Source of the DNA: a virus
Lineage: Duplodnaviria > Heunggongvirae > Uroviricota > Caudoviricetes
Length of the DNA stretch: 10,899 nucleotides
Strand: one strand, 5' to 3'
Virus record (IMG/VR): IMGVR_UViG_2529292833_000014
Made by a program: the position numbers and the translations under genes. This document shows positions 1,839 to 10,093 of this stretch, piece after piece. Numbering within the stretch: position 1 is the stretch's first letter; each line of letters starts with the position of its first letter. The notes below the pieces were generated by a model. It saw only the letters and a list, made by a program, of their open reading frames with translations, had not been told where the DNA came from and searched no databases.

Positions 1839-2216
1839 ATGAATACTGGATATTCTCCCGAACAAGGGCGGGGCTTCGTTCGTCCTGAAAAACAGAATCT
1901 GCAAAATTTTGCCGAAATTATTCCGGTTATTTCCGGCCTTACTGGCGGGAGTGAAACCAATATTGTTAACGCCAGAGCGTTGCAGATGTTTGATGATAAA
2001 AAGGGAGTAAATTTAACTTACACCCCTGACGGCAATCAGAATATGAGCATTATCTCTGAGTCAGGTTTCTACAAACTAATAAAAACAAAAAGCGCCCCGT
2101 TGCCGGAGCGCCTTTGTGAACAATTAACCTACTGCGCAAAAAATGAATCTGAGCAGTGGGATTATATCAACCGTGTGGCGAAGCGCCACAATTGCCGGAT
2201 AACAGGCAAAACAAAG
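1839..2216 (+). pseudogene. Bro-N-like (phage antirepressor N-terminal domain) gene remnant; only the N-terminal ~125 codons look protein-like
   Basis: Translation DDKKGVNLTYTPDGNQNMSIISESGFYKLIKTKSAPLPERL resembles the Bro-N core (EKGV.LT...GG.Q.MSIINESGLYSLI..S..PEA). The same frame then runs on to 3251 as Ser/Arg-rich low-complexity sequence, antisense to better ORFs and across a promoter region. End coordinate is approximate. Confidence 0.3.
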
Positions 2217-2314
2217 GCCACCCGCTACGGTGGCCCCTCGACACAAGCTACACGTTATCCCCAACGCATGAGCATCACCAACAATGCCACATTTGCGGCT
2301 GGTGGGCAATGTGA

Positions 2315-2503
2315 TCAGTCAGATTTGGTTCGTTCCAAGGTTTGCAACGAGAGCTTTTTCCTGTGCTCTTTAAGGAATTTCTCAAGAGCAAAAGCACATG
2401 GCGCGAATCTTTCTGATTCATGCTCTATCTTTCTGCGCCGTCTTTTCCGTGCCGGTGATAATGTTTTGGTCAATTCTTTATCGGTCATTGTGTTGTCCTG
2501 CAT
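2315..2503 (-). CDS. Hypothetical small basic protein (62 aa)
   Basis: ORF on the minus strand directly downstream of the 2546..2851 gene and co-oriented with it; Lys/Arg-rich (ARKRRRRKIEHE). No recognisable domain. Weak support. Confidence 0.3.
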   Translation of the reverse strand: MQDNTMTDKELTKTLSPARKRRRRKIEHESERFAPCAFALEKFLKEHRKKLSLQTLERTKSD

Positions 2504-2545
2504 AGCAATGCGCCGTAATACCTTACACCACGGCGCTGGTGATGG

Positions 2546-2851
2546 TCACTCCTGCTCTTTGGCCTTGCGACGCTGGAGTTCTTCACGCGCGACGGTGATG
2601 AGTTGCCCGATCTCCTCGGCTGCTTTGACTCCGATTTTTTCCACCTGCGCCAGTGCATCGAGCGAAGAAACCAGGGGATTTTCTCCGCTTCCTTCTGCCT
2701 GGCGGCGGGCGATCTCACCGCGAACGGCTGTAATCACGAAAGCGGCTATTGTTTCCCCTTCCGTTTTCGAATTTTCCATTTCCTCGATTACATCATGGGG
2801 GAAGCGGATATTTTTCATTTGCGATCTGCTGTTGATATTTCCTGTTGCCAT
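2546..2851 (-). CDS. Putative small DNA-binding regulator (101 aa), possibly ribbon-helix-helix type
   Basis: Protein-like composition, in contrast to the Ser-rich opposite-strand frame. The N-terminal segment KNIRFPHDVIEEME followed by helical stretches is compatible with an RHH fold (inference). Transcribed divergently from the operator-bearing promoter region. Confidence 0.5.
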   Translation of the reverse strand: MATGNINSRSQMKNIRFPHDVIEEMENSKTEGETIAAFVITAVRGEIARRQAEGSGENPLVSSLDALAQVEKIGVKAAEEIGQLITVAREELQRRKAKEQE

Positions 2852-2872
2852 CAGAATGTCCGGTTATTTTGA

Positions 2873-2975
2873 GGTGTGCATACATTACACCAAAAGGTGT
2901 GTAAATAAAACACTTGACACTGTAGCGCACTTAAATTTAATCTGTACACACACCAATGATTGTGGTGTATGTACA
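2873..2975. promoter_or_regulatory. Divergent regulatory region: sigma70-like promoter (TTGACA 2914..2919, N16, TTTAAT 2936..2941) with repeated operator-like motif GGTGTRYRTACA
   Basis: Seen directly: GGTGTGCATACA (2873..2884), GGTGTGTAAATA (2896..2907), and an inverted pair TGTACACACACC (2943..2954) / GGTGTATGTACA (2964..2975) with a 9-bp spacer, immediately downstream of the -10 element. Confidence 0.5.
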
Positions 2976-3047
2976 GCAAAGCCCCGCAGTGCTGGAACAC
3001 ATGCAGGGCTTCTAACCACCAACGATAGCGAAAGTATCGAGGTAGCT

Positions 3048-3251
3048 ATGAGAAATTATACCAGACACCCGCAAGGGCGGGACTCGTACAACCTGAATAA
3101 ATACATCTGGCGTTTTATCGCCCTGAGCACGGCACAACCGCGCGTGATTACCATTGAGGCCACCAGCGAACAGGAAGCGCGTCAGCAATCTCCTGATGGC
3201 TGCGTGATGGTATTCGCTGCCCGTATTCGCCAGGGGGAACACCATGATTAA
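3048..3251 (+). CDS. Small protein (67 aa), Icd-like (host cell division inhibitor-like) family candidate
   Basis: ATG at 3048 preceded by GAGGT; motifs YIWRF and VMVFAARIRQGE resemble small prophage/satellite proteins annotated as Icd-like (from memory, moderate certainty). It is the C-terminal part of the long 1839..3251 reading frame. Confidence 0.5.
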   Translation: MRNYTRHPQGRDSYNLNKYIWRFIALSTAQPRVITIEATSEQEARQQSPDGCVMVFAARIRQGEHHD

Positions 3252-3453
3252 CCTGTCACTTACTGACCTTAACCGCGTTCAGTTTCGTGAGAAATTTACC
3301 GGGCAGCTACTGGTCAATGTGGATAAAGGTCGCGTGGTGTGTAATTACCACCTGCCAGATGAAGCCATTGTCGCAACAAGGGAATCATTACAGGAACTCG
3401 CAGAACGTGCCGGAATGATTAACGCGAATATTCAGGGGGTGAGCCATGCATAA
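3244..3453 (+). CDS. Hypothetical small protein (69 aa), paralog 1 of a tandem pair
   Basis: RBS GGGGG 6 nt upstream; start overlaps the previous stop by 8 nt; shares a (V/Y).(V/L)(D/E)KGRV.C core with the next gene. Confidence 0.6.
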   Translation: MINLSLTDLNRVQFREKFTGQLLVNVDKGRVVCNYHLPDEAIVATRESLQELAERAGMINANIQGVSHA

Positions 3454-3658
3454 TCATGAAACGCACTTACCTGTAGTGCTGAATGTGCCATCAGATTATA
3501 CGGGGCGCGTACTGGTGTATCTGGAAAAAGGCCGGGTTAAATGTCAGTGCCGTTTAATGGAAAACGAATTTATTAGCACTCTTGCGGGATTTTCTGAAAT
3601 GCTCACTAAATCGGGTGTTAGTGCAGACCAGTTACGCGGGGGCGATTATGCGAAATAA
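3446..3658 (+). CDS. Hypothetical small protein (70 aa), paralog 2 of a tandem pair
   Basis: RBS GGGGGTGAG upstream; overlaps the stop of paralog 1; about 30 percent identity to paralog 1 by eye (TG..LV...KGRV.C...L.E). Confidence 0.6.
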   Translation: MHNHETHLPVVLNVPSDYTGRVLVYLEKGRVKCQCRLMENEFISTLAGFSEMLTKSGVSADQLRGGDYAK

Positions 3659-3872: not shown

Positions 3873-4172
3873 ATGAAACAGAAAAATTCTGGCTTTACTG
3901 CCAGTGGTCTCCCTCGGCCTGAAATCCGCCCCGGCGATATTTTCCGGGATAACTACGGTGGCACGGTAACGATTAAAAGCGTGGCGGGGCGGGGCGTTAC
4001 TTACCGCCGTGATGGGTACGGCTATGACTGCGTGATGCCTGCTTATCAGTTCCGGCGTGATTTTTCACTGATACAGGCCACACCACGCAAACAGCCCACC
4101 AGCAACGCAAAGGCACGGGCAAATATTCAGAAAATGAAAAACATGATTAACGCATTCAGGGGCAAAAAATGA
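3873..4172 (+). CDS. Hypothetical protein (99 aa)
   Basis: RBS GGAG about 8 nt upstream; stop overlaps the start of the replication gene (ATGA). No recognisable domain. Confidence 0.6.
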   Translation: MKQKNSGFTASGLPRPEIRPGDIFRDNYGGTVTIKSVAGRGVTYRRDGYGYDCVMPAYQFRRDFSLIQATPRKQPTSNAKARANIQKMKNMINAFRGKK

Positions 4173-5584
4173 AACTGGCACCGAACTTAAAAAAACAGCC
4201 ACACGACAAAATGACCGAAGTCATTATTTTTGCGGGTAGTGATGCCTGGGCGCACGCGAAACAGTGGCAGGAACAGGACGGGCGACTTGCTGGTGATAAC
4301 GTCCCGCCTGTATGGCTGGGAGACAGCCAGCTTGACGAACTGGCAGACCTGAAAATTATCGACGATGGTCGCTATTGTGTCCGGCTGTACAAGGCAGGCC
4401 ACATCAAGCCGTCAAATATTAATGCTATCGGGCAAAAGCTGGCGGCGGCAGGTGTACGGGATGCGAATTATTACCCTGATGGAATGCACAGCCAGAAGCT
4501 GGAGAACTGGCACGACTACCTGCAACGGATCCGCGAACAGGCAGAGCGCGGGGAAATACTTACTGACGAGCAATACAGCCAGCGAAAAACCACGCTACCA
4601 ATGAGCATTGGATCTGCAGGGTACGACACACAGCTTGATTATGTCGTTAAGGGCGTGATTCCGGCTAATTCATTGTGCAGCACATACGGCGCGAGCGGTT
4701 CCTATAAATCGTTCCTCGCGTGTTCCTGGGCGTGTCATGTTGCCACTGGCCGTCACTGGGGAGGCCGCAGGGTGGCGCATGGTTCGGTGATGTATGTTGT
4801 CGGTGAAGGTGGCATTGGTGCCCCCCGCCGTATCAAGGCATGGGAAATCGTTAATGATGAACGGGTGGAAAATCTGTACCTGGTAAACCGCCCGATTTTT
4901 CCGGCAGTCCCGCTTGATGTTGATGAAATGGTCATCGCTTCCCGCCAGGTTGAACGGGAAACGGGTAAACCGGTACGCATGATTATTCTTGATACGCTGG
5001 CGCGTTGCTTTGGCGGTAATGATGAAAATGACGCGCGGGATATGGGGGCGTTTATCCGTGGATGTGACGAACTGAAACGCCGCACAGGGGCCACGGTGCT
5101 GGTGGTTCACCATTCCGGCAAGGATGAAACAAAGGGGGCGCGTGGTTCCAGTGCATTTCGTGCATCTCTGGACGCTGAATACCGTATTCGCCGTGAAGGT
5201 GCAGACAGTGAAGCCCTGGTTATCTCCTGCACAAAAATGAAGGACGCGGAGGAACTGAAAGAGGCCGCATACGATTTACGTGTGGGGGAGCTTTTTACCG
5301 ACACTGACGGGGAGTTAATCACGTCGCTGGTTGTTGTGGATAAGCCGCGCCCACCCGTTGAACTGGAGCGCATCGAGGAAGCCGGGAACAAGACGGAGAA
5401 TCATGCCGCGCTATGGGGCTGTATCCGTTCACGCACACAGCGCGGAGATAAATGCACTATTCCGTTGTTGCGCGATGATATGAAAAAGCTGGGGTATGAG
5501 ATGAAACACTTCCGGCGCTGGCTGTACAAGCTGGAAGGTGATGGCGTTATTGCTATTGACGGTGATGACGTGCGCCCACTGTAA
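4169..5584 (+). CDS. Replication initiator / RepA-like (AAA_25, RecA-fold) ATPase with a probable C-terminal DNA-binding domain, 471 aa
   Basis: P-loop-like YGASGSYKSFLA, Walker-B-like hydrophobic stretch ending in D (MIILDTLARCFGG), and VLVVHHSGKD typical of RepA/DnaB-like AAA_25 proteins; followed immediately by an iteron cluster. Translationally coupled to the upstream gene. Confidence 0.8.
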   Translation: MKLAPNLKKQPHDKMTEVIIFAGSDAWAHAKQWQEQDGRLAGDNVPPVWLGDSQLDELADLKIIDDGRYCVRLYKAGHIKPSNINAIGQKLAAAGVRDANYYPDGMHSQKLENWHDYLQRIREQAERGEILTDEQYSQRKTTLPMSIGSAGYDTQLDYVVKGVIPANSLCSTYGASGSYKSFLACSWACHVATGRHWGGRRVAHGSVMYVVGEGGIGAPRRIKAWEIVNDERVENLYLVNRPIFPAVPLDVDEMVIASRQVERETGKPVRMIILDTLARCFGGNDENDARDMGAFIRGCDELKRRTGATVLVVHHSGKDETKGARGSSAFRASLDAEYRIRREGADSEALVISCTKMKDAEELKEAAYDLRVGELFTDTDGELITSLVVVDKPRPPVELERIEEAGNKTENHAALWGCIRSRTQRGDKCTIPLLRDDMKKLGYEMKHFRRWLYKLEGDGVIAIDGDDVRPL

Positions 5585-5785: not shown

Positions 5786-6037
5786 ATGACCAGAAAAACC
5801 AGAGATAAGACAGCGCCAAAATATAAAGCGTTAGACATGACAGAGCACGCCTTAAAGGTGGCAATCAGAACGATAGACCGCCACGCTGGGGAAGGATACG
5901 CGAAAGCACACCCCGAACTGATAAGCGCATTCATGACCACGACGGCGGCAAACTTTGCCACGCTGACAGAACGGGAGATTGCCGAAGCGGAACAGGTGAC
6001 AACCATCAACGTTAAAACTGGAGAGCAGACAGCATGA
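5786..6037 (+). CDS. Hypothetical protein (83 aa)
   Basis: GGGGAG 9 nt upstream of the ATG; stop overlaps the ssb start (ATGA). No recognisable domain. Confidence 0.5.
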   Translation: MTRKTRDKTAPKYKALDMTEHALKVAIRTIDRHAGEGYAKAHPELISAFMTTTAANFATLTEREIAEAEQVTTINVKTGEQTA

Positions 6038-6399
6038 CAGCACAGATAGCGGCTTACGGGCGGCTGGTGGCTGACCCGCAGTTAAAGACCACCAGCAAGG
6101 GTACACAAATGACGATGGCTAGTATGGCGGTCCCCCTTCCGTGCAGCCAGGCAGATGACGGAACGGCGACGATGTGGTTATCCGTCCTGGCGTTTGGCAG
6201 ACAGGCCGACGCACTGGCAAAACACCACAAAGGCGAACTGGTGAGCGTGGCGGGTAACATGCAGGTAAGGCAGTGGACAGGCCAGAACGGCGAAACGCGG
6301 CAGGGCTGGCAGGTTATCGCAGACAGTGTAATCAGTGCCAGAACGGCGCGACCGGGCGGCAAAAAAAAGGTCAACAGGACCAGGCTACTGACGCACTGA
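6034..6399 (+). CDS. ssb: Single-stranded DNA-binding protein (OB-fold core), 121 aa in the zero frame; the canonical acidic tail is encoded in the -1 frame
   Basis: WLSVLAFGRQADALAKHHKGELVSVAGNMQVRQWTGQNGETRQGWQV aligns with the E. coli SSB core (WHRVVLFGKLAEVA...GQLRTRKWTDQSGQDR). The zero frame ends ...GGKKKVNRTRLLTH without a tail. Confidence 0.75.
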   Translation: MTAQIAAYGRLVADPQLKTTSKGTQMTMASMAVPLPCSQADDGTATMWLSVLAFGRQADALAKHHKGELVSVAGNMQVRQWTGQNGETRQGWQVIADSVISARTARPGGKKKVNRTRLLTH

Positions 6400-6458
6400 A
6401 CAGGGCAAAACAACAGTCGGGGAATGATGATCCGTACGGCGATAATATACCGTTTTAA
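6363..6458 (+). other. -1 frame segment encoding the SSB linker and acidic tail (...QQSGNDDPYGDNIPF), reached from the ssb frame at the A8 run / A_AAA_AAG heptamer (6363..6369)
   Basis: Seen directly by translating the -1 frame from the A run 6361..6368. The tail tip DNIPF matches the conserved SSB C-terminus (DDDIPF in E. coli SSB). Confidence 0.6.
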
Positions 6459-8078: not shown

Positions 8079-8462
8079 ATGCAGAATCATTACAATGACC
8101 TTAAGCCAATTGCCGAAATGATGTATCCGGATCCAGCAGTAGAGGAATTAAAGGCTATTGCTGACAAAATGCGTTTAAGTGAACGCCTTGTTGATATGAA
8201 TCAGGTGATGGAACTTACTACCCTTAGCCGTCGCACATTGCTAAACCTTGAGGCTCGCGGAGAGTTCCCCGAACGCGTACAGGTTACGGAAGGGCGTGAG
8301 GCCTGGTATTTAAGCGAAGTGATCGACTGGATAAACAATATTCCTCGAGCTTCTGAATATTGCCGCGTACCTGTCCCAAAAAAGCCAGATGCGGCGCTAT
8401 GCCTCAAGATTGAGCGTGTACGCCGCAATGCACGGGATGGTCGCTATAAGTTGATTGGTTGA
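8079..8462 (+). CDS. AlpA/MerR-like HTH domain protein (127 aa) with N- and C-terminal extensions
   Basis: Central segment MNQVMELTTLSRRTLLNLEARGEFPERVQVTEGREAWYLSEVIDWINN has the AlpA/excisionase-type HTH pattern; RBS AAAGGGGGA. Sits between the decoration gene and the cos site. Confidence 0.65.
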   Translation: MQNHYNDLKPIAEMMYPDPAVEELKAIADKMRLSERLVDMNQVMELTTLSRRTLLNLEARGEFPERVQVTEGREAWYLSEVIDWINNIPRASEYCRVPVPKKPDAALCLKIERVRRNARDGRYKLIG

Positions 8463-8488: not shown

Positions 8489-8600
8489 GGGTCCTTTCCG
8501 GCGATCCGGTAGGCTACGGGGCGGCGACCTTGCGGATTTTCGCTATTTATGAGCCTTTTCGGGTTGGTGGTGGTGGTTTTGTTTTTCGCTCTATCTCTAT
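8489..8600. other. Lambda-type cos site (cosQ-proximal region, cosN with 12-nt cohesive-end sequence GGGCGGCGACCT at 8519..8530, divergent cosB-like region)
   Basis: Seen directly and compared with the recalled lambda termini: GGGTCCTTTCCGGCGATCCGGTAGGCTACG / GGGCGGCGACCT / TGCGGATTTTCGCTATTTATGAGCCTTTTCGGGTT versus lambda GGGTCCTTTCCGGTGATCCGACAGGTTACG / GGGCGGCGACCT / CGCGGGTTTTCGCTATTTATGAAAATTTTCCGGTT. Sequence diverges from lambda downstream of about 8567. Confidence 0.8.
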
Positions 8601-8663
8601 GAATAAAAAGGGAAAGATAACACCAACACACCAACCTGAAACCTTAACTAAGTGGGGATATTG

Positions 8664-9206
8664 ATGAAATCGCACCTGATGAACAAAAAAACTATGGCGC
8701 AAAGCTGCCGCGTAAGTGCGACAGCGTTCGACAAGTGGGGAGTAACTCCCGTTGAGCGTAAAGGCCGTGAGGCGTTTTATGATGTTGCTAGCGTGATAGA
8801 CAATAGGGTTAACAATGCAATTAACCAGCTTACAAACGACAAAGGCGAGATTGATGATGATGAACTTTTACGCGTAAGAATCAGATTGCTGACAGCACAG
8901 GCGGAAGCGCAGGAACTTAAAAACGAGCGCGAACGCGGCGAGGTGATTGATACAAAGTTTTGCATCTACGCGATTTCAAAACTAGCGAGTCAGATTTCAT
9001 CAATCATGGACAGCCTCCCGCTCACAATGCAAAGGCGCTTTCCCGATATAAGGCCGTATATGCTGGATGAACTAAAAAGGGAAATAGCCAAAGCATGTAA
9101 CGCATGTGCAAGACTTGACGAAAACCTGCCACAGATACTGGCTGATTACCTGATGGAAACTACCGGAAGCGCGCCTGAGAAGTTGCTACAGAACAAAGGC
9201 GAGTAA
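8664..9206 (+). CDS. Terminase small subunit homolog, lambda gpNu1-like (candidate packaging-redirecting protein)
   Basis: RLLTAQAEAQELKNERERGEVIDTKFCIYAISKLASQISSIMDSLPLTMQRRFPDI matches lambda Nu1 RLTRAQADAQELKNARDSAEVVETAFCTFVLSRIAGEIASILDGLPLSVQRRFPEL (recalled); the N-terminal NKKTMAQ aligns with Nu1 NKKQLAD. Start is uncertain: ATG 8664 has the best RBS (GGGGA, 5 nt), ATG 8679 fits the Nu1 alignment best, and the ORF is open from 8652. Confidence 0.85.
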   Translation: MKSHLMNKKTMAQSCRVSATAFDKWGVTPVERKGREAFYDVASVIDNRVNNAINQLTNDKGEIDDDELLRVRIRLLTAQAEAQELKNERERGEVIDTKFCIYAISKLASQISSIMDSLPLTMQRRFPDIRPYMLDELKREIAKACNACARLDENLPQILADYLMETTGSAPEKLLQNKGE

Positions 9207-9279: not shown

Positions 9280-9561
9280 ATGACAGAAGCCGAAATACTG
9301 CGATTAATCCGCCGCGTTACCGGAATCAGCCAGCAGGCTGACGAACAGGCCACGCAGCCGGACAGCGTGACCGCTGAAAATTATGTGCGTGTTGTTGCTG
9401 AGGTGATGCGCCGTGACGGTATCGAGCTTAACGGCGTGGATATGCGCAACATACGCACCAGAGTTCTGGAGATGTTGTCGTACCGTCGCCGCGTGCAGAT
9501 GTACCAAGAGAAAGAAAAAATTACTTACCACTGGAAGAAGCCGGAACGGTTACGACGTTAA
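9280..9561 (+). CDS. Hypothetical protein (93 aa)
   Basis: ORF with GGGGG 4 nt upstream of the ATG; no recognisable domain; last gene before the non-coding boundary region. Confidence 0.45.
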   Translation: MTEAEILRLIRRVTGISQQADEQATQPDSVTAENYVRVVAEVMRRDGIELNGVDMRNIRTRVLEMLSYRRRVQMYQEKEKITYHWKKPERLRR

Positions 9562-9567
9562 CTTGTG

Positions 9568-9607
9568 GTGACATACCGTGACGGAGAGTGACACACAGTG
9601 ACAAAAA
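9568..9607. repeat. Four GTGAC repeats at exact 10-bp spacing (9568, 9578, 9588, 9598)
   Basis: Seen directly: GTGACATACC GTGACGGAGA GTGACACACA GTGACAAAAA, starting 7 nt after the stop of the last element gene. Confidence 0.5.
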
Positions 9608-10093
9608 AGACGGTATTTAAATCGGGTGGTGTTTAATACCCCCAGGGGGATAGAAATCCCTACACCTCATTGCTTATGGGACCGCCCGCCTACCCTTGTT
9701 CACATCGCCGCAGGTTCGAAAACTTTTTTTGGGAAGGTGTGCACGGGATTGATAGATGAGGTCTATCTATAAAAAATCACAAAATCCGCGCCATTGCTGG
9801 ATCCGCCAAAAATCCCCCACCTTACGGCAGACAAAGAAAACGCGAATTATGGGCCTGTTGCAGAGAAAAAAGGTCTCACTAGTTTTGCGCACCCTAGCAT
9901 CGAGGTTCGTCAGCCTCCCATCAGCAACCAGATAACTAATCTCGCTGGTGGGCATGATGCCGATATGGGGACTTCCATAACGGTTTATCCGTGATCATCC
10001 ACCAGCTTCATGGCGGATAGCCGGAAAATGATAACGGTATAGCCCGTCGCTTGTGTCTATTTGTTCCGCATTGTTGCATACAGTGCACCGAAC

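Follow-up and report, generated by a model that had tools for sequence, protein, structure and literature searches.

A candidate ribbon-helix-helix immunity switch at the divergent promoters of EcCICFT073-type phage-inducible chromosomal islands

The 10,899-nt stretch of viral DNA analysed here (IMG/VR record IMGVR_UViG_2529292833_000014), hereafter the window, is a phage-inducible chromosomal island (PICI) of Escherichia coli of the EcCICFT073 type. Its control region, positions 2852-3047, separates a leftward gene of the ylcI family from a rightward operon of small genes and replication genes that starts with an icd-like gene. Within these 196 nt lie two candidate back-to-back promoters, an array of 12-bp repeats and a structured leader, and the whole region is spanned by a long open reading frame (ORF) on the plus strand. 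From alpA to icd, the features are as follows.

1598-1786, + strand: alpA, 62 aa; Pfam Phage_AlpA, 3e-18; known activator family of Gram-negative PICIs (PMC6092414)
1839-3251, + strand: long ORF, 470 aa; ATG 53 nt past the alpA stop; ends in frame as Icd
2315-2503, - strand: orf62, small leftward ORF of 62 aa downstream of ylcI; phrog_21027, 2e-14
2546-2851, - strand: ylcI-family gene, 101 aa; proposed repressor
2873-2884: site O_L1, GGTGTGCATACA; exact match to the 12-mer; overlaps the putative -10 and start of P_L, the leftward promoter
2882-2887, - strand: probable P_L -10, TAATGT; position-equivalent to a conserved GTATAC (minus strand TATACT) of most other types
2896-2907: site O_L2, GGTGTGTAAATA; two mismatches; in the spacer/-35 zone of P_L, 23 bp from O_L1
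2905-2910, - strand: P_L -35 candidate, a weak TTTTAT
2914-2919, + strand: -35 of the rightward promoter, P_R; TTGACA, a perfect hexamer in a conserved island (identity 0.70)
2920-2930: site O_R1, CTGTAGCGCAC; possible degenerate operator at the canonical position just 3' of the -35; low confidence
2936-2941, + strand: P_R -10 candidate, TTTAAT, N16 from the -35
2938-2943, + strand: P_R -10 alternative, TAATCT, N18 spacer; has both key bases, but 3/6 consensus
2943-2954: site O_R2, TGTACACACACC; exact match, inverted; over the putative P_R start site
2964-2975: site O_R3, GGTGTATGTACA; exact match; palindrome with O_R2
2979-3011, + strand: leader hairpin 1, AAGCCCCGCAGTG...CACATGCAGGGCTT, then a conserved CTAACCACCAA
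3017-3043, + strand: predicted leader hairpin 2, CGATA-loop-TATCG
3048-3251, + strand: icd-like gene, 67 aa; NCBIfam NF033153 phage_ICD_like, 1e-19; first gene of the rightward small-gene/replication operon

Repeated sites between ylcI and icd

The repeat has the 12-bp consensus GGTGT-N4-ACA. Its pattern GGTGTRYRTACA has three exact matches in the window, all inside the 103 bp from 2873 to 2975, and none in 200 dinucleotide shuffles; the pattern was derived from the window's own copies, so that independent support comes from the comparison with relatives. The four clear sites, O_L1, O_L2, O_R2 and O_R3, are spaced 23, 47 and 21 bp from centre to centre. The 47-bp gap has its centre at 2920-2930, just 3' of the -35, which is the canonical O_R1 position, and a site there fills the phasing of about 21–23 bp; the sequence found at that position, CTGTAGCGCAC, matches the 12-mer of the window weakly. 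The arms of O_R2 and O_R3 are extended by a repeat tool to 14 nt (2942-2955 and 2963-2976; 93%, 7 nt between). From the hexamers, P_R would start near 2948-2951, and P_L probably occupies 2882-2910, where the -10 zone forms a conserved island (identity 0.65 at 2879-2893) between variable operators.

A preliminary description of this DNA had proposed a repressor-controlled divergent switch at this place. The TTGACA-N16-TTTAAT arrangement that it placed in front of the rightward operon is present at 2914-2919 and 2936-2941, as is its inverted pair of 12-mers with one mismatch and a 9-bp spacer (2943-2954 and 2964-2975). Of its two upstream copies in the same orientation, 2873-2884 is exact and 2896-2907, while present, has two mismatches. 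The divergent control region is real, but it is not simply intergenic, lying as it does inside the plus-strand ORF 1839-3251. The half-site GGTGTGCA that it pointed out near the right end of the element does occur at 9736-9743, yet at chance frequency (0.44 expected; at least two matches in 14 of 200 shuffles). As a distal operator it was rejected, its continuation CGGG not fitting the 12-mer.

The region is widespread. Of 5426 complete E. coli genomes, 1873 match a 761-nt query over ylcI, the control region and icd at least in part, and in many of the matches both flanking genes are conserved and the middle is replaced. For comparison we used 11 annotated E. coli loci and 80 IMG/VR loci, the latter found through the conserved Icd, used as an alignment query on viral contigs, so that their selection was blind to the upstream sequence (a single Icd protein as query on genome contigs gave three loci only). 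In 87 loci icd is preceded by a YlcI-family gene, with about 190–208 nt of spacer between the two, and the layout of the spacer is constant. Next to the ylcI start, a site abuts the conserved GTATAC, the likely leftward -10. At about +60–66 follows a TTGAC- or TTGAA-like -35 (variants TTGCAA, TTTACG and TTGGCG), found in the 87 relatives at the position of the window's TTGACA. Directly after it comes a site in the frame GTG-N5-CAC, which is the strongest operator copy in all types other than the window's. The P_R -10 of the other types is TAnnnT at a spacer of 17, and after the -10 all types have a site equivalent to O_R2, direct or inverted according to type. Further weaker sites are common, in several types at the position of O_L2, and successive sites are mostly 22–23 bp apart. 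O_L1 is position-equivalent to the type-specific O_L site of most types, about 20–31 nt from the ylcI ATG; the O_L site was not recovered in a few types (for example type F and the QQKTARI types).

Within this fixed layout the repeat sequence differs among islands, and about 16 types can be told apart. Examples are GTGTGTTTCA, GTGGCTGACA, TGTGCGCACA, ATGTATATCAC, GTGTTCAACAC and GTGCGATTCA, and further GTGCAAGTCA, GTGGGCCACA, GTGTAAGACA, GTGGATTCCA and TGGTATTCA. The repeat recurs two to five times within each type, where chance would give about 0.03 extra sites per type (at most 2 mismatches of 11). Between type representatives the zones of the promoter hexamers are 0.65–0.70 identical, and the operator positions are the least conserved, at 0.2–0.4. 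The window's own type, GGTGT-N4-ACA, fits the layout except for its degenerate site after the -35 and its downstream palindromic pair. EcCICFT073 itself (locus L098, 27931-38655; E. coli CFT073, NC_004431 1377930-1388654) has the same module, with a YlcI-family gene of 59 aa and an operator type of its own, GTGGGGGACA / GTGGGCCACAC. The ylcI-family and short icd-like genes of CFT073 carry high-numbered locus tags and look like later annotation additions.

The YlcI domain and its operators

YlcI belongs to a family found across Enterobacterales. Residues 9-50 match NCBIfam NF041551 YlcI_YnfO_N with 64.2 bits against a cut-off of 30 (8e-18), and the alignment shows a strand, QMKNIRF, an R-x-P motif (P18), helix A, a G-E-S/T turn at 32-34 with an invariant E33, and helix B. 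A ribbon-helix-helix (RHH) protein is expected to show this succession in some 45 residues: a beta-strand in which polar and hydrophobic residues alternate, helix A, a turn of the form G-x-S/T/N, and helix B. An AlphaFold model (pLDDT 81) has helices at 19-28 and 35-54 and then a long helix at 59-100. Pfam gave a sub-threshold match only (PSK_trans_fac, E 0.004), and sequence searches of the PDB with YlcI returned no RHH match. The case that the N-terminus is an RHH-like DNA-binding domain, as family alignment and model suggest, is good but not conclusive.

The 101-aa form of YlcI has an inserted segment (2546-2700, residues about 52-100; LDALAQVEKIGVKAAEEIGQLI) that is absent from the 59-aa forms and spans operator types. 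It resembles a helix-hairpin-helix (HhH), with a weak profile match to the Hef HhH domain (E 0.013), and AlphaFold models it as one long helix; it could be an oligomerisation or inducer-sensing domain.

The closest structural matches of YlcI are RHH antitoxins, and an RHH gene followed by a small ORF is also the gene order of type II toxin–antitoxin systems. YlcI and orf62 might thus be an antitoxin and toxin, or a self-contained autoregulated cassette whose effect on P_R is incidental; in a variant of this explanation YlcI would be an activator. No toxin family matches orf62, however, which is absent from the annotation of loci L002, L003, L005 and L007, while annotated in several relatives and in EcCICFT073. 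The best-conserved operators, moreover, lie on the P_R side (spacer, +1 and +20) and not on the P_L side, and spacer and +1 are positions of a repressor. We consider this explanation improbable, and it is the one that fares best among the alternatives.

Since three to five copies change together in each island, a matching factor that acts in trans must change too. The first 50 residues of YlcI do so: operator type and this domain correspond one-to-one (adjusted mutual information, AMI, 0.98). The C-terminal part of YlcI is common to different operator types, and an RRKAKEQE tail is common to the 101-aa YlcI, with its inserted helical segment, and the 59-aa YlcI. The sequence of orf62 is likewise common to different operator types, and orf62 is therefore not the specificity determinant. 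The variable cassette is thus made up of the first ~50 codons of ylcI and ~125 bp of operators. Within the domain, operator-core identity follows the seven strand residues when the rest of the domain is controlled for (partial rank correlation 0.41; 0 of 2000 permutations). In loci L002, L003 and L009 the helices are near-identical and the strands, QSLTARI, QLTTVRV and QMTTIRV, differ, as do the operator cores, TGTAAGCCA, TGTGTTTCA and TGTATATCA. Both the correlation and these three loci argue for direct recognition.

The same dependence on the strand, with the rest of YlcI nearly constant, speaks against the idea that the repeats are pairing sites for an immunity RNA, as seqA, seqB and seqC are for the CI RNA of P4, or as in the c4 system of P1, with the YlcI domain hitch-hiking beside them. 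What lends that idea some weight is a conserved structured leader downstream of the repeats and the place of icd as the first gene after c4 in P1 immI. In relatives of these islands, this zone also holds immunity RNAs of a C4/isrK-like kind (PMC10111431). The window, however, has no C4/isrK or other Rfam match (searched whole at E up to 1, with no family for the leader and no C4/isrK/CI-like RNA), and several types have their copies in direct orientation throughout, unable to pair mutually. The copies also keep to fixed points of the promoters (next to the leftward -10, immediately past the -35, at +1), and O_L and O_R1 would fall outside the P_L and P_R transcripts. An RNA role for the repeats is, in our judgement, more improbable still than a toxin–antitoxin pair.

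The repeats could also be read by another protein of the island, either copy of AlpA or the Icd-like protein. The Icd families phrog_6196 and phrog_1743 are labelled 'transcriptional repressor' in PHROGs, and AlpA is a known PICI regulator that activates PICI genes (PMC6092414). Operator type is nevertheless almost independent of both: the AMI is 0.10 with the Icd core, where a single cluster goes with 13 operator types, and 0.24 with AlpA, where a single cluster goes with up to six. Locus L003 has an integrase and an AlpA identical to those of the window (same WP accessions), and its YlcI domain and operators differ. We hold either protein to be a very unlikely reader of the sites.

By this covariation, the sites are almost certainly bound by the RHH-like domain of the adjacent YlcI. 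The comparison of islands points to an immunity module of Gram-negative PICIs that would consist of a repressor and an operator set over both divergent promoters.

An open frame from alpA to icd

The long ORF starts as a degenerate Bro-N-like N-terminus, then runs antisense to orf62 and to ylcI, crosses the operators and the leader, and enters icd. The long ORFs of the islands have a conserved N-terminus, MNTGYSPEQGRGFVRP..., then a Bro-N-like segment with weak Bro-N/Ant matches, then an NNATFAAGGQC motif. In its longer form, M-S-I-(T/A)-N-N-A-T-F-A-A-G-G-Q-C, this plus-frame motif (2269-2319) occurs in 11 of the 12 loci examined (not in L010), N-terminal differences notwithstanding, and lies just upstream of the antisense overlap of the frame with orf62. 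A GC-rich hairpin that lacks a U-tract, GGCGGC-ACACA-GCCGCC, lies at 1789-1813, past the alpA stop and ahead of the first codon of the long ORF.

The frame is kept open where chance would close it. Across the variable operator part, 20 of 21 types have it open, where dinucleotide shuffles would give 1.24, and over antisense ylcI the number is again 20 of 21, where synonymous recoding would give 6.9. Among 19 representatives, the variable operator part has 11 stops in the icd frame as opposed to 67 and 54 in the other two plus frames, and the 11 are confined to three representatives, two of which have another plus frame free of stops. Counted from ylcI, the longest open frame over the ylcI start is the same wobble-aligned frame in all 87 loci, and it is fused in frame to icd in 70 of them and in EcCICFT073. 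In the unfused loci it mostly ends shortly before the icd ATG (about 19–32 nt; L003 and L004), and in a few further upstream. Selection thus appears, from these patterns, to keep the translatability of the long frame and not its protein sequence. The long ORF of EcCICFT073 has 428 aa, likewise starts 53 nt past alpA, and is probably the 'ORF3' whose expression needs AlpA (PMC6092414).

That the segment is plain coding sequence of a 470-aa protein, with ylcI a shadow ORF and repeats without a regulatory role, is the least probable of the alternatives: the frame is indeed kept open, and PGAP annotates it in the window genome as a single plus-strand ORF (1839-3251, 470 aa, 'Icd-like') and leaves the leftward ylcI unannotated, but PGAP calls ylcI and a short icd as separate genes in most other genomes, what is translated over the operators is hypervariable from type to type, its one constraint being the avoidance of stops, YlcI has a curated family match, a predicted RHH fold and a start that is conserved and in several types has a good Shine-Dalgarno sequence, and the concerted change of three to five repeat copies per type needs a trans factor.

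The last ~70 nt of the frame before icd (2979-3047) form the conserved leader. Six pairs of hairpin 1 are kept through changes on both sides (RNAalifold, 14 variants), and the hairpin folds in the window. In hairpin 2 the stem is invariant and the 7-nt loop hypervariable, with no covariation across the 48 leader variants; flanking ACC/GGU pairing includes part of the icd Shine-Dalgarno sequence (GAGG, 3039-3042), and the predicted structure would partly occlude the ribosome-binding site of icd. For the minus strand of the leader, Rfam listed a SymR-like match over two hairpins that stayed below threshold (25 bits; cut-off 61). Possible roles of the leader are attenuation, stability and translational control, and ribosomes on the long ORF would melt both of its hairpins.

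We read 2852-3047 as an immunity switch in which YlcI would repress both promoters, set inside the AlpA-to-Icd frame, and put the probability of this reading at about 0.75. The regulatory core of it, the product of 2546..2851 acting on the repeats of a divergent switch, was already in the preliminary description and gains strong support from the layout in 87 islands and from the one-to-one match of domain and operator type. Two back-to-back sigma-70 promoters would be involved, P_L for ylcI and orf62 and P_R for the icd-like gene, the small genes, DUF4222 and the RepA helicase. Both would be covered by four to five 12-bp sites, about two helical turns apart, which the RHH domain would read through its N-terminal beta-strand. 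In the silent island, cooperatively bound YlcI dimers at the spacer, +1 and about +20 sites would shut P_R and hence icd and the replication operon, and YlcI would limit its own synthesis through the site over the P_L -10 and start. A matched DNA-binding domain and operator set would constitute the immunity type of each island lineage, and in a naive cell, after transfer, P_R would fire until YlcI builds up.

On helper induction, AlpA would activate its own promoter, as shown for EcCICFT073. AlpA-activated transcription would then run rightward through the long ORF, with coupled translation across operators and leader into the replication genes. Such read-through would let the replication operon be expressed in spite of the repressor, and would collide with convergent leftward transcription of ylcI. 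For EcCICFT073, excision and replication in a non-lysogen are reported to follow from cloned alpA (PMC6092414); that alpA alone suffices in this account fits a bypass and not an antirepressor. A wider claim is that the master repressor of the EcCICFT073 family is an RHH protein of 59–101 aa with at least 16–21 heteroimmune types, bypassed and not inactivated by AlpA-driven translated read-through, which would also silence ylcI through convergent transcription. We advance it tentatively, as somewhat more apt to fail than to hold. If it holds, YlcI would have escaped notice as a repressor owing to the antisense position of its gene within a long ORF that is annotated, and the islands would have, with a protein repressor, the counterpart of P4's RNA-based immunity circuit.

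Several observations weigh against the switch as we read it. The scores behind the RHH assignment are modest: Foldseek found nothing significant for YlcI in the PDB, and hhalign against Arc and Mnt gave a weak P=0.018 over 20 columns. One pair of types has the same strand, QQLNARF, and different operator cores, and the covariation could partly be linkage within one recombination cassette, in which the ylcI domain adjoins the operators. In the window, O_R1 is degenerate at the canonical site. A consensus promoter scan of 2300-3500 found no promoter, rejecting TTTAAT for a T instead of A at -11; 'near-consensus', as the preliminary description had it, was an overstatement, and we keep the P_R call on comparative evidence only. 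The in-frame fusion to icd is lost in about 16 of the 87 loci, and the translation opposite ylcI, in which S, L, R and C abound, has the look of a shadow frame under no constraint.

Should YlcI be the repressor, this would explain the silence of these satellites, predict heteroimmunity groups among co-resident islands and provide a natural series of matched beta-strand/operator pairs for the study of RHH recognition. The open frame across the operators yields a concrete and cheap prediction on how AlpA overrides repression.

Related systems and the island setting

In immI of phage P22, the RHH repressors Mnt and Arc act at the divergent Pmnt and Pant promoters. The module described here resembles it as a small gene for an RHH-like candidate repressor, divergent from the operon that it would repress and probably autoregulated, with putative operators over back-to-back promoters, and the strand and helix A of YlcI align in register with the Arc/Mnt strand in the weak hhalign match. 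It differs in having an array of four to five sites at ~22 bp where P22 has one 21-bp operator per repressor, in lacking significant similarity to Arc or Mnt, in that the operon under its putative control is for replication and not an antirepressor, in belonging to a satellite, and in lying within a long ORF.

Arrays of direct or inverted repeats over the promoter of replication genes are also known from plasmids, where RHH dimers of omega of pSM19035 and CopG of pMV158 bind several short repeats over such a promoter. Repeat length and spacing differ from those of the islands, there is no detectable sequence relationship, and the setting here is that of a satellite. Lambdoid immunity regions have, as the islands appear to, a swappable cassette of repressor specificity and multi-copy operators between conserved flanks, in many heteroimmune types. 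Their repressors are helix-turn-helix (HTH) proteins and not RHH, and in the islands the boundary of the cassette falls within the putative repressor gene, only the first ~50 codons of which are type-variable. In P1 immI (c4 RNA, icd, ant), a protein of the Icd family likewise stands first in a regulated operon behind a structured leader; unlike P1, the window has no detected c4-like RNA, and its downstream genes are for replication and not an antirepressor.

Stl and Rpr, master repressors in SaPIs (pathogenicity islands found in Staphylococcus aureus) and in other Gram-positive PICIs, are encoded leftward, divergent from a rightward replication/packaging operon, and are diverse in specificity among islands (PMC6092414), as YlcI appears to be. 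Stl repressors, unlike the 59–101-aa RHH-like YlcI, are larger HTH proteins that helper-phage proteins inactivate. For EcCICFT073, induction and transfer by a helper phage have been demonstrated, and the global repressor in Gram-negative PICIs is stated to be unclear (PMC6092414). Cloned alpA is reported there to induce excision and replication with no helper present, which makes a derepressing phage antirepressor unnecessary.

The left operon of P4 (PLE, PLL) is closest in organisation, having an alpA homologue, a long ORF of the Bro network, an internal repressible promoter, a nested in-frame gene and a primase/helicase operon. There, the long eta ORF after the alpA homologue holds a repressible internal promoter and the nested kil, and translation of eta from the late promoter prevents termination (PMC10111431). 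Nesting of this kind is found here too, ORF 1839-3251 containing P_R and being in frame with icd. Unlike the CI RNA of P4, which acts on termination, the apparent regulator here is a protein repressor that would act on promoters and is encoded antisense in the long ORF. Searching 50,697 phage records for Icd by tblastn gave a single satellite-like record and no match in P4 or P1, and the resemblance to P4 is one of organisation, not membership.

RHH repressors on divergent promoters, swappable lambdoid cassettes and the nested genes of P4 with an internal promoter are thus known already. The literature searched (YlcI/YnfO, DUF3950, PICI repressors) contained no description of YlcI-family proteins or of this operator array, and the YlcI family as a putative repressor of Gram-negative PICIs, its many operator types and its antisense placement in a frame kept open appear undescribed.

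The window is 99.9% identical to E. coli chromosomes, in which the island sits between abgR and smrA. It has the int, alpA, small genes, primase/helicase and late zone with captured capsid genes of an EcCICFT073-type PICI, and by annotation also the size of about 10–15 kb, the flanking att repeats and the absence of lysis and tail genes; its gene order and content, capsid and decoration genes included, are those of EcCICFT073. The remaining features of the island are listed below.

Just left of the window (L001 5954-5979) and 10093-10118: att core, a 26-bp direct repeat, CGGTGTAGTTAATGGTGTAGTTAATT; bounds an element of ~10.2 kb
1-1230: integrase
4169-5584: RepA-family helicase, preceded by small genes and DUF4222
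6034-6458: gene of the single-stranded DNA-binding protein (SSB); frameshifted according to PGAP
Downstream of the SSB gene: major capsid and decoration genes
8079-8462: second AlpA-like gene
8664-9206: TerS-like gene

With its SSB gene frameshifted (6034-6458), this copy of the island may be partly decayed. The att core is itself a tandem duplication of GGTGTAGTTAAT.

Between the AlpA-like and TerS-like genes, at 8556-8642, lies an 87-nt near-perfect hairpin in which GGTGGT/ACCAAC repeats are abundant, and for which Rfam gave a spurious miRNA match only. One of its arms holds GTTGGTGGT, complementary to the conserved leader segment ACCACCAAC (3016-3024); about 0.08 such 9-mer complementarities are expected by chance. 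The hairpin may serve as a terminator, in packaging or as a partner for pairing. Directly past the last island ORF (9280-9561), GTGAC occurs four times as a direct repeat, ~10 bp apart (9566-9605; GTGGTGACA..GTGAC..GTGAC..GTGAC), and these copies could be arm-type sites of the integrase or binding sites of a packaging protein.

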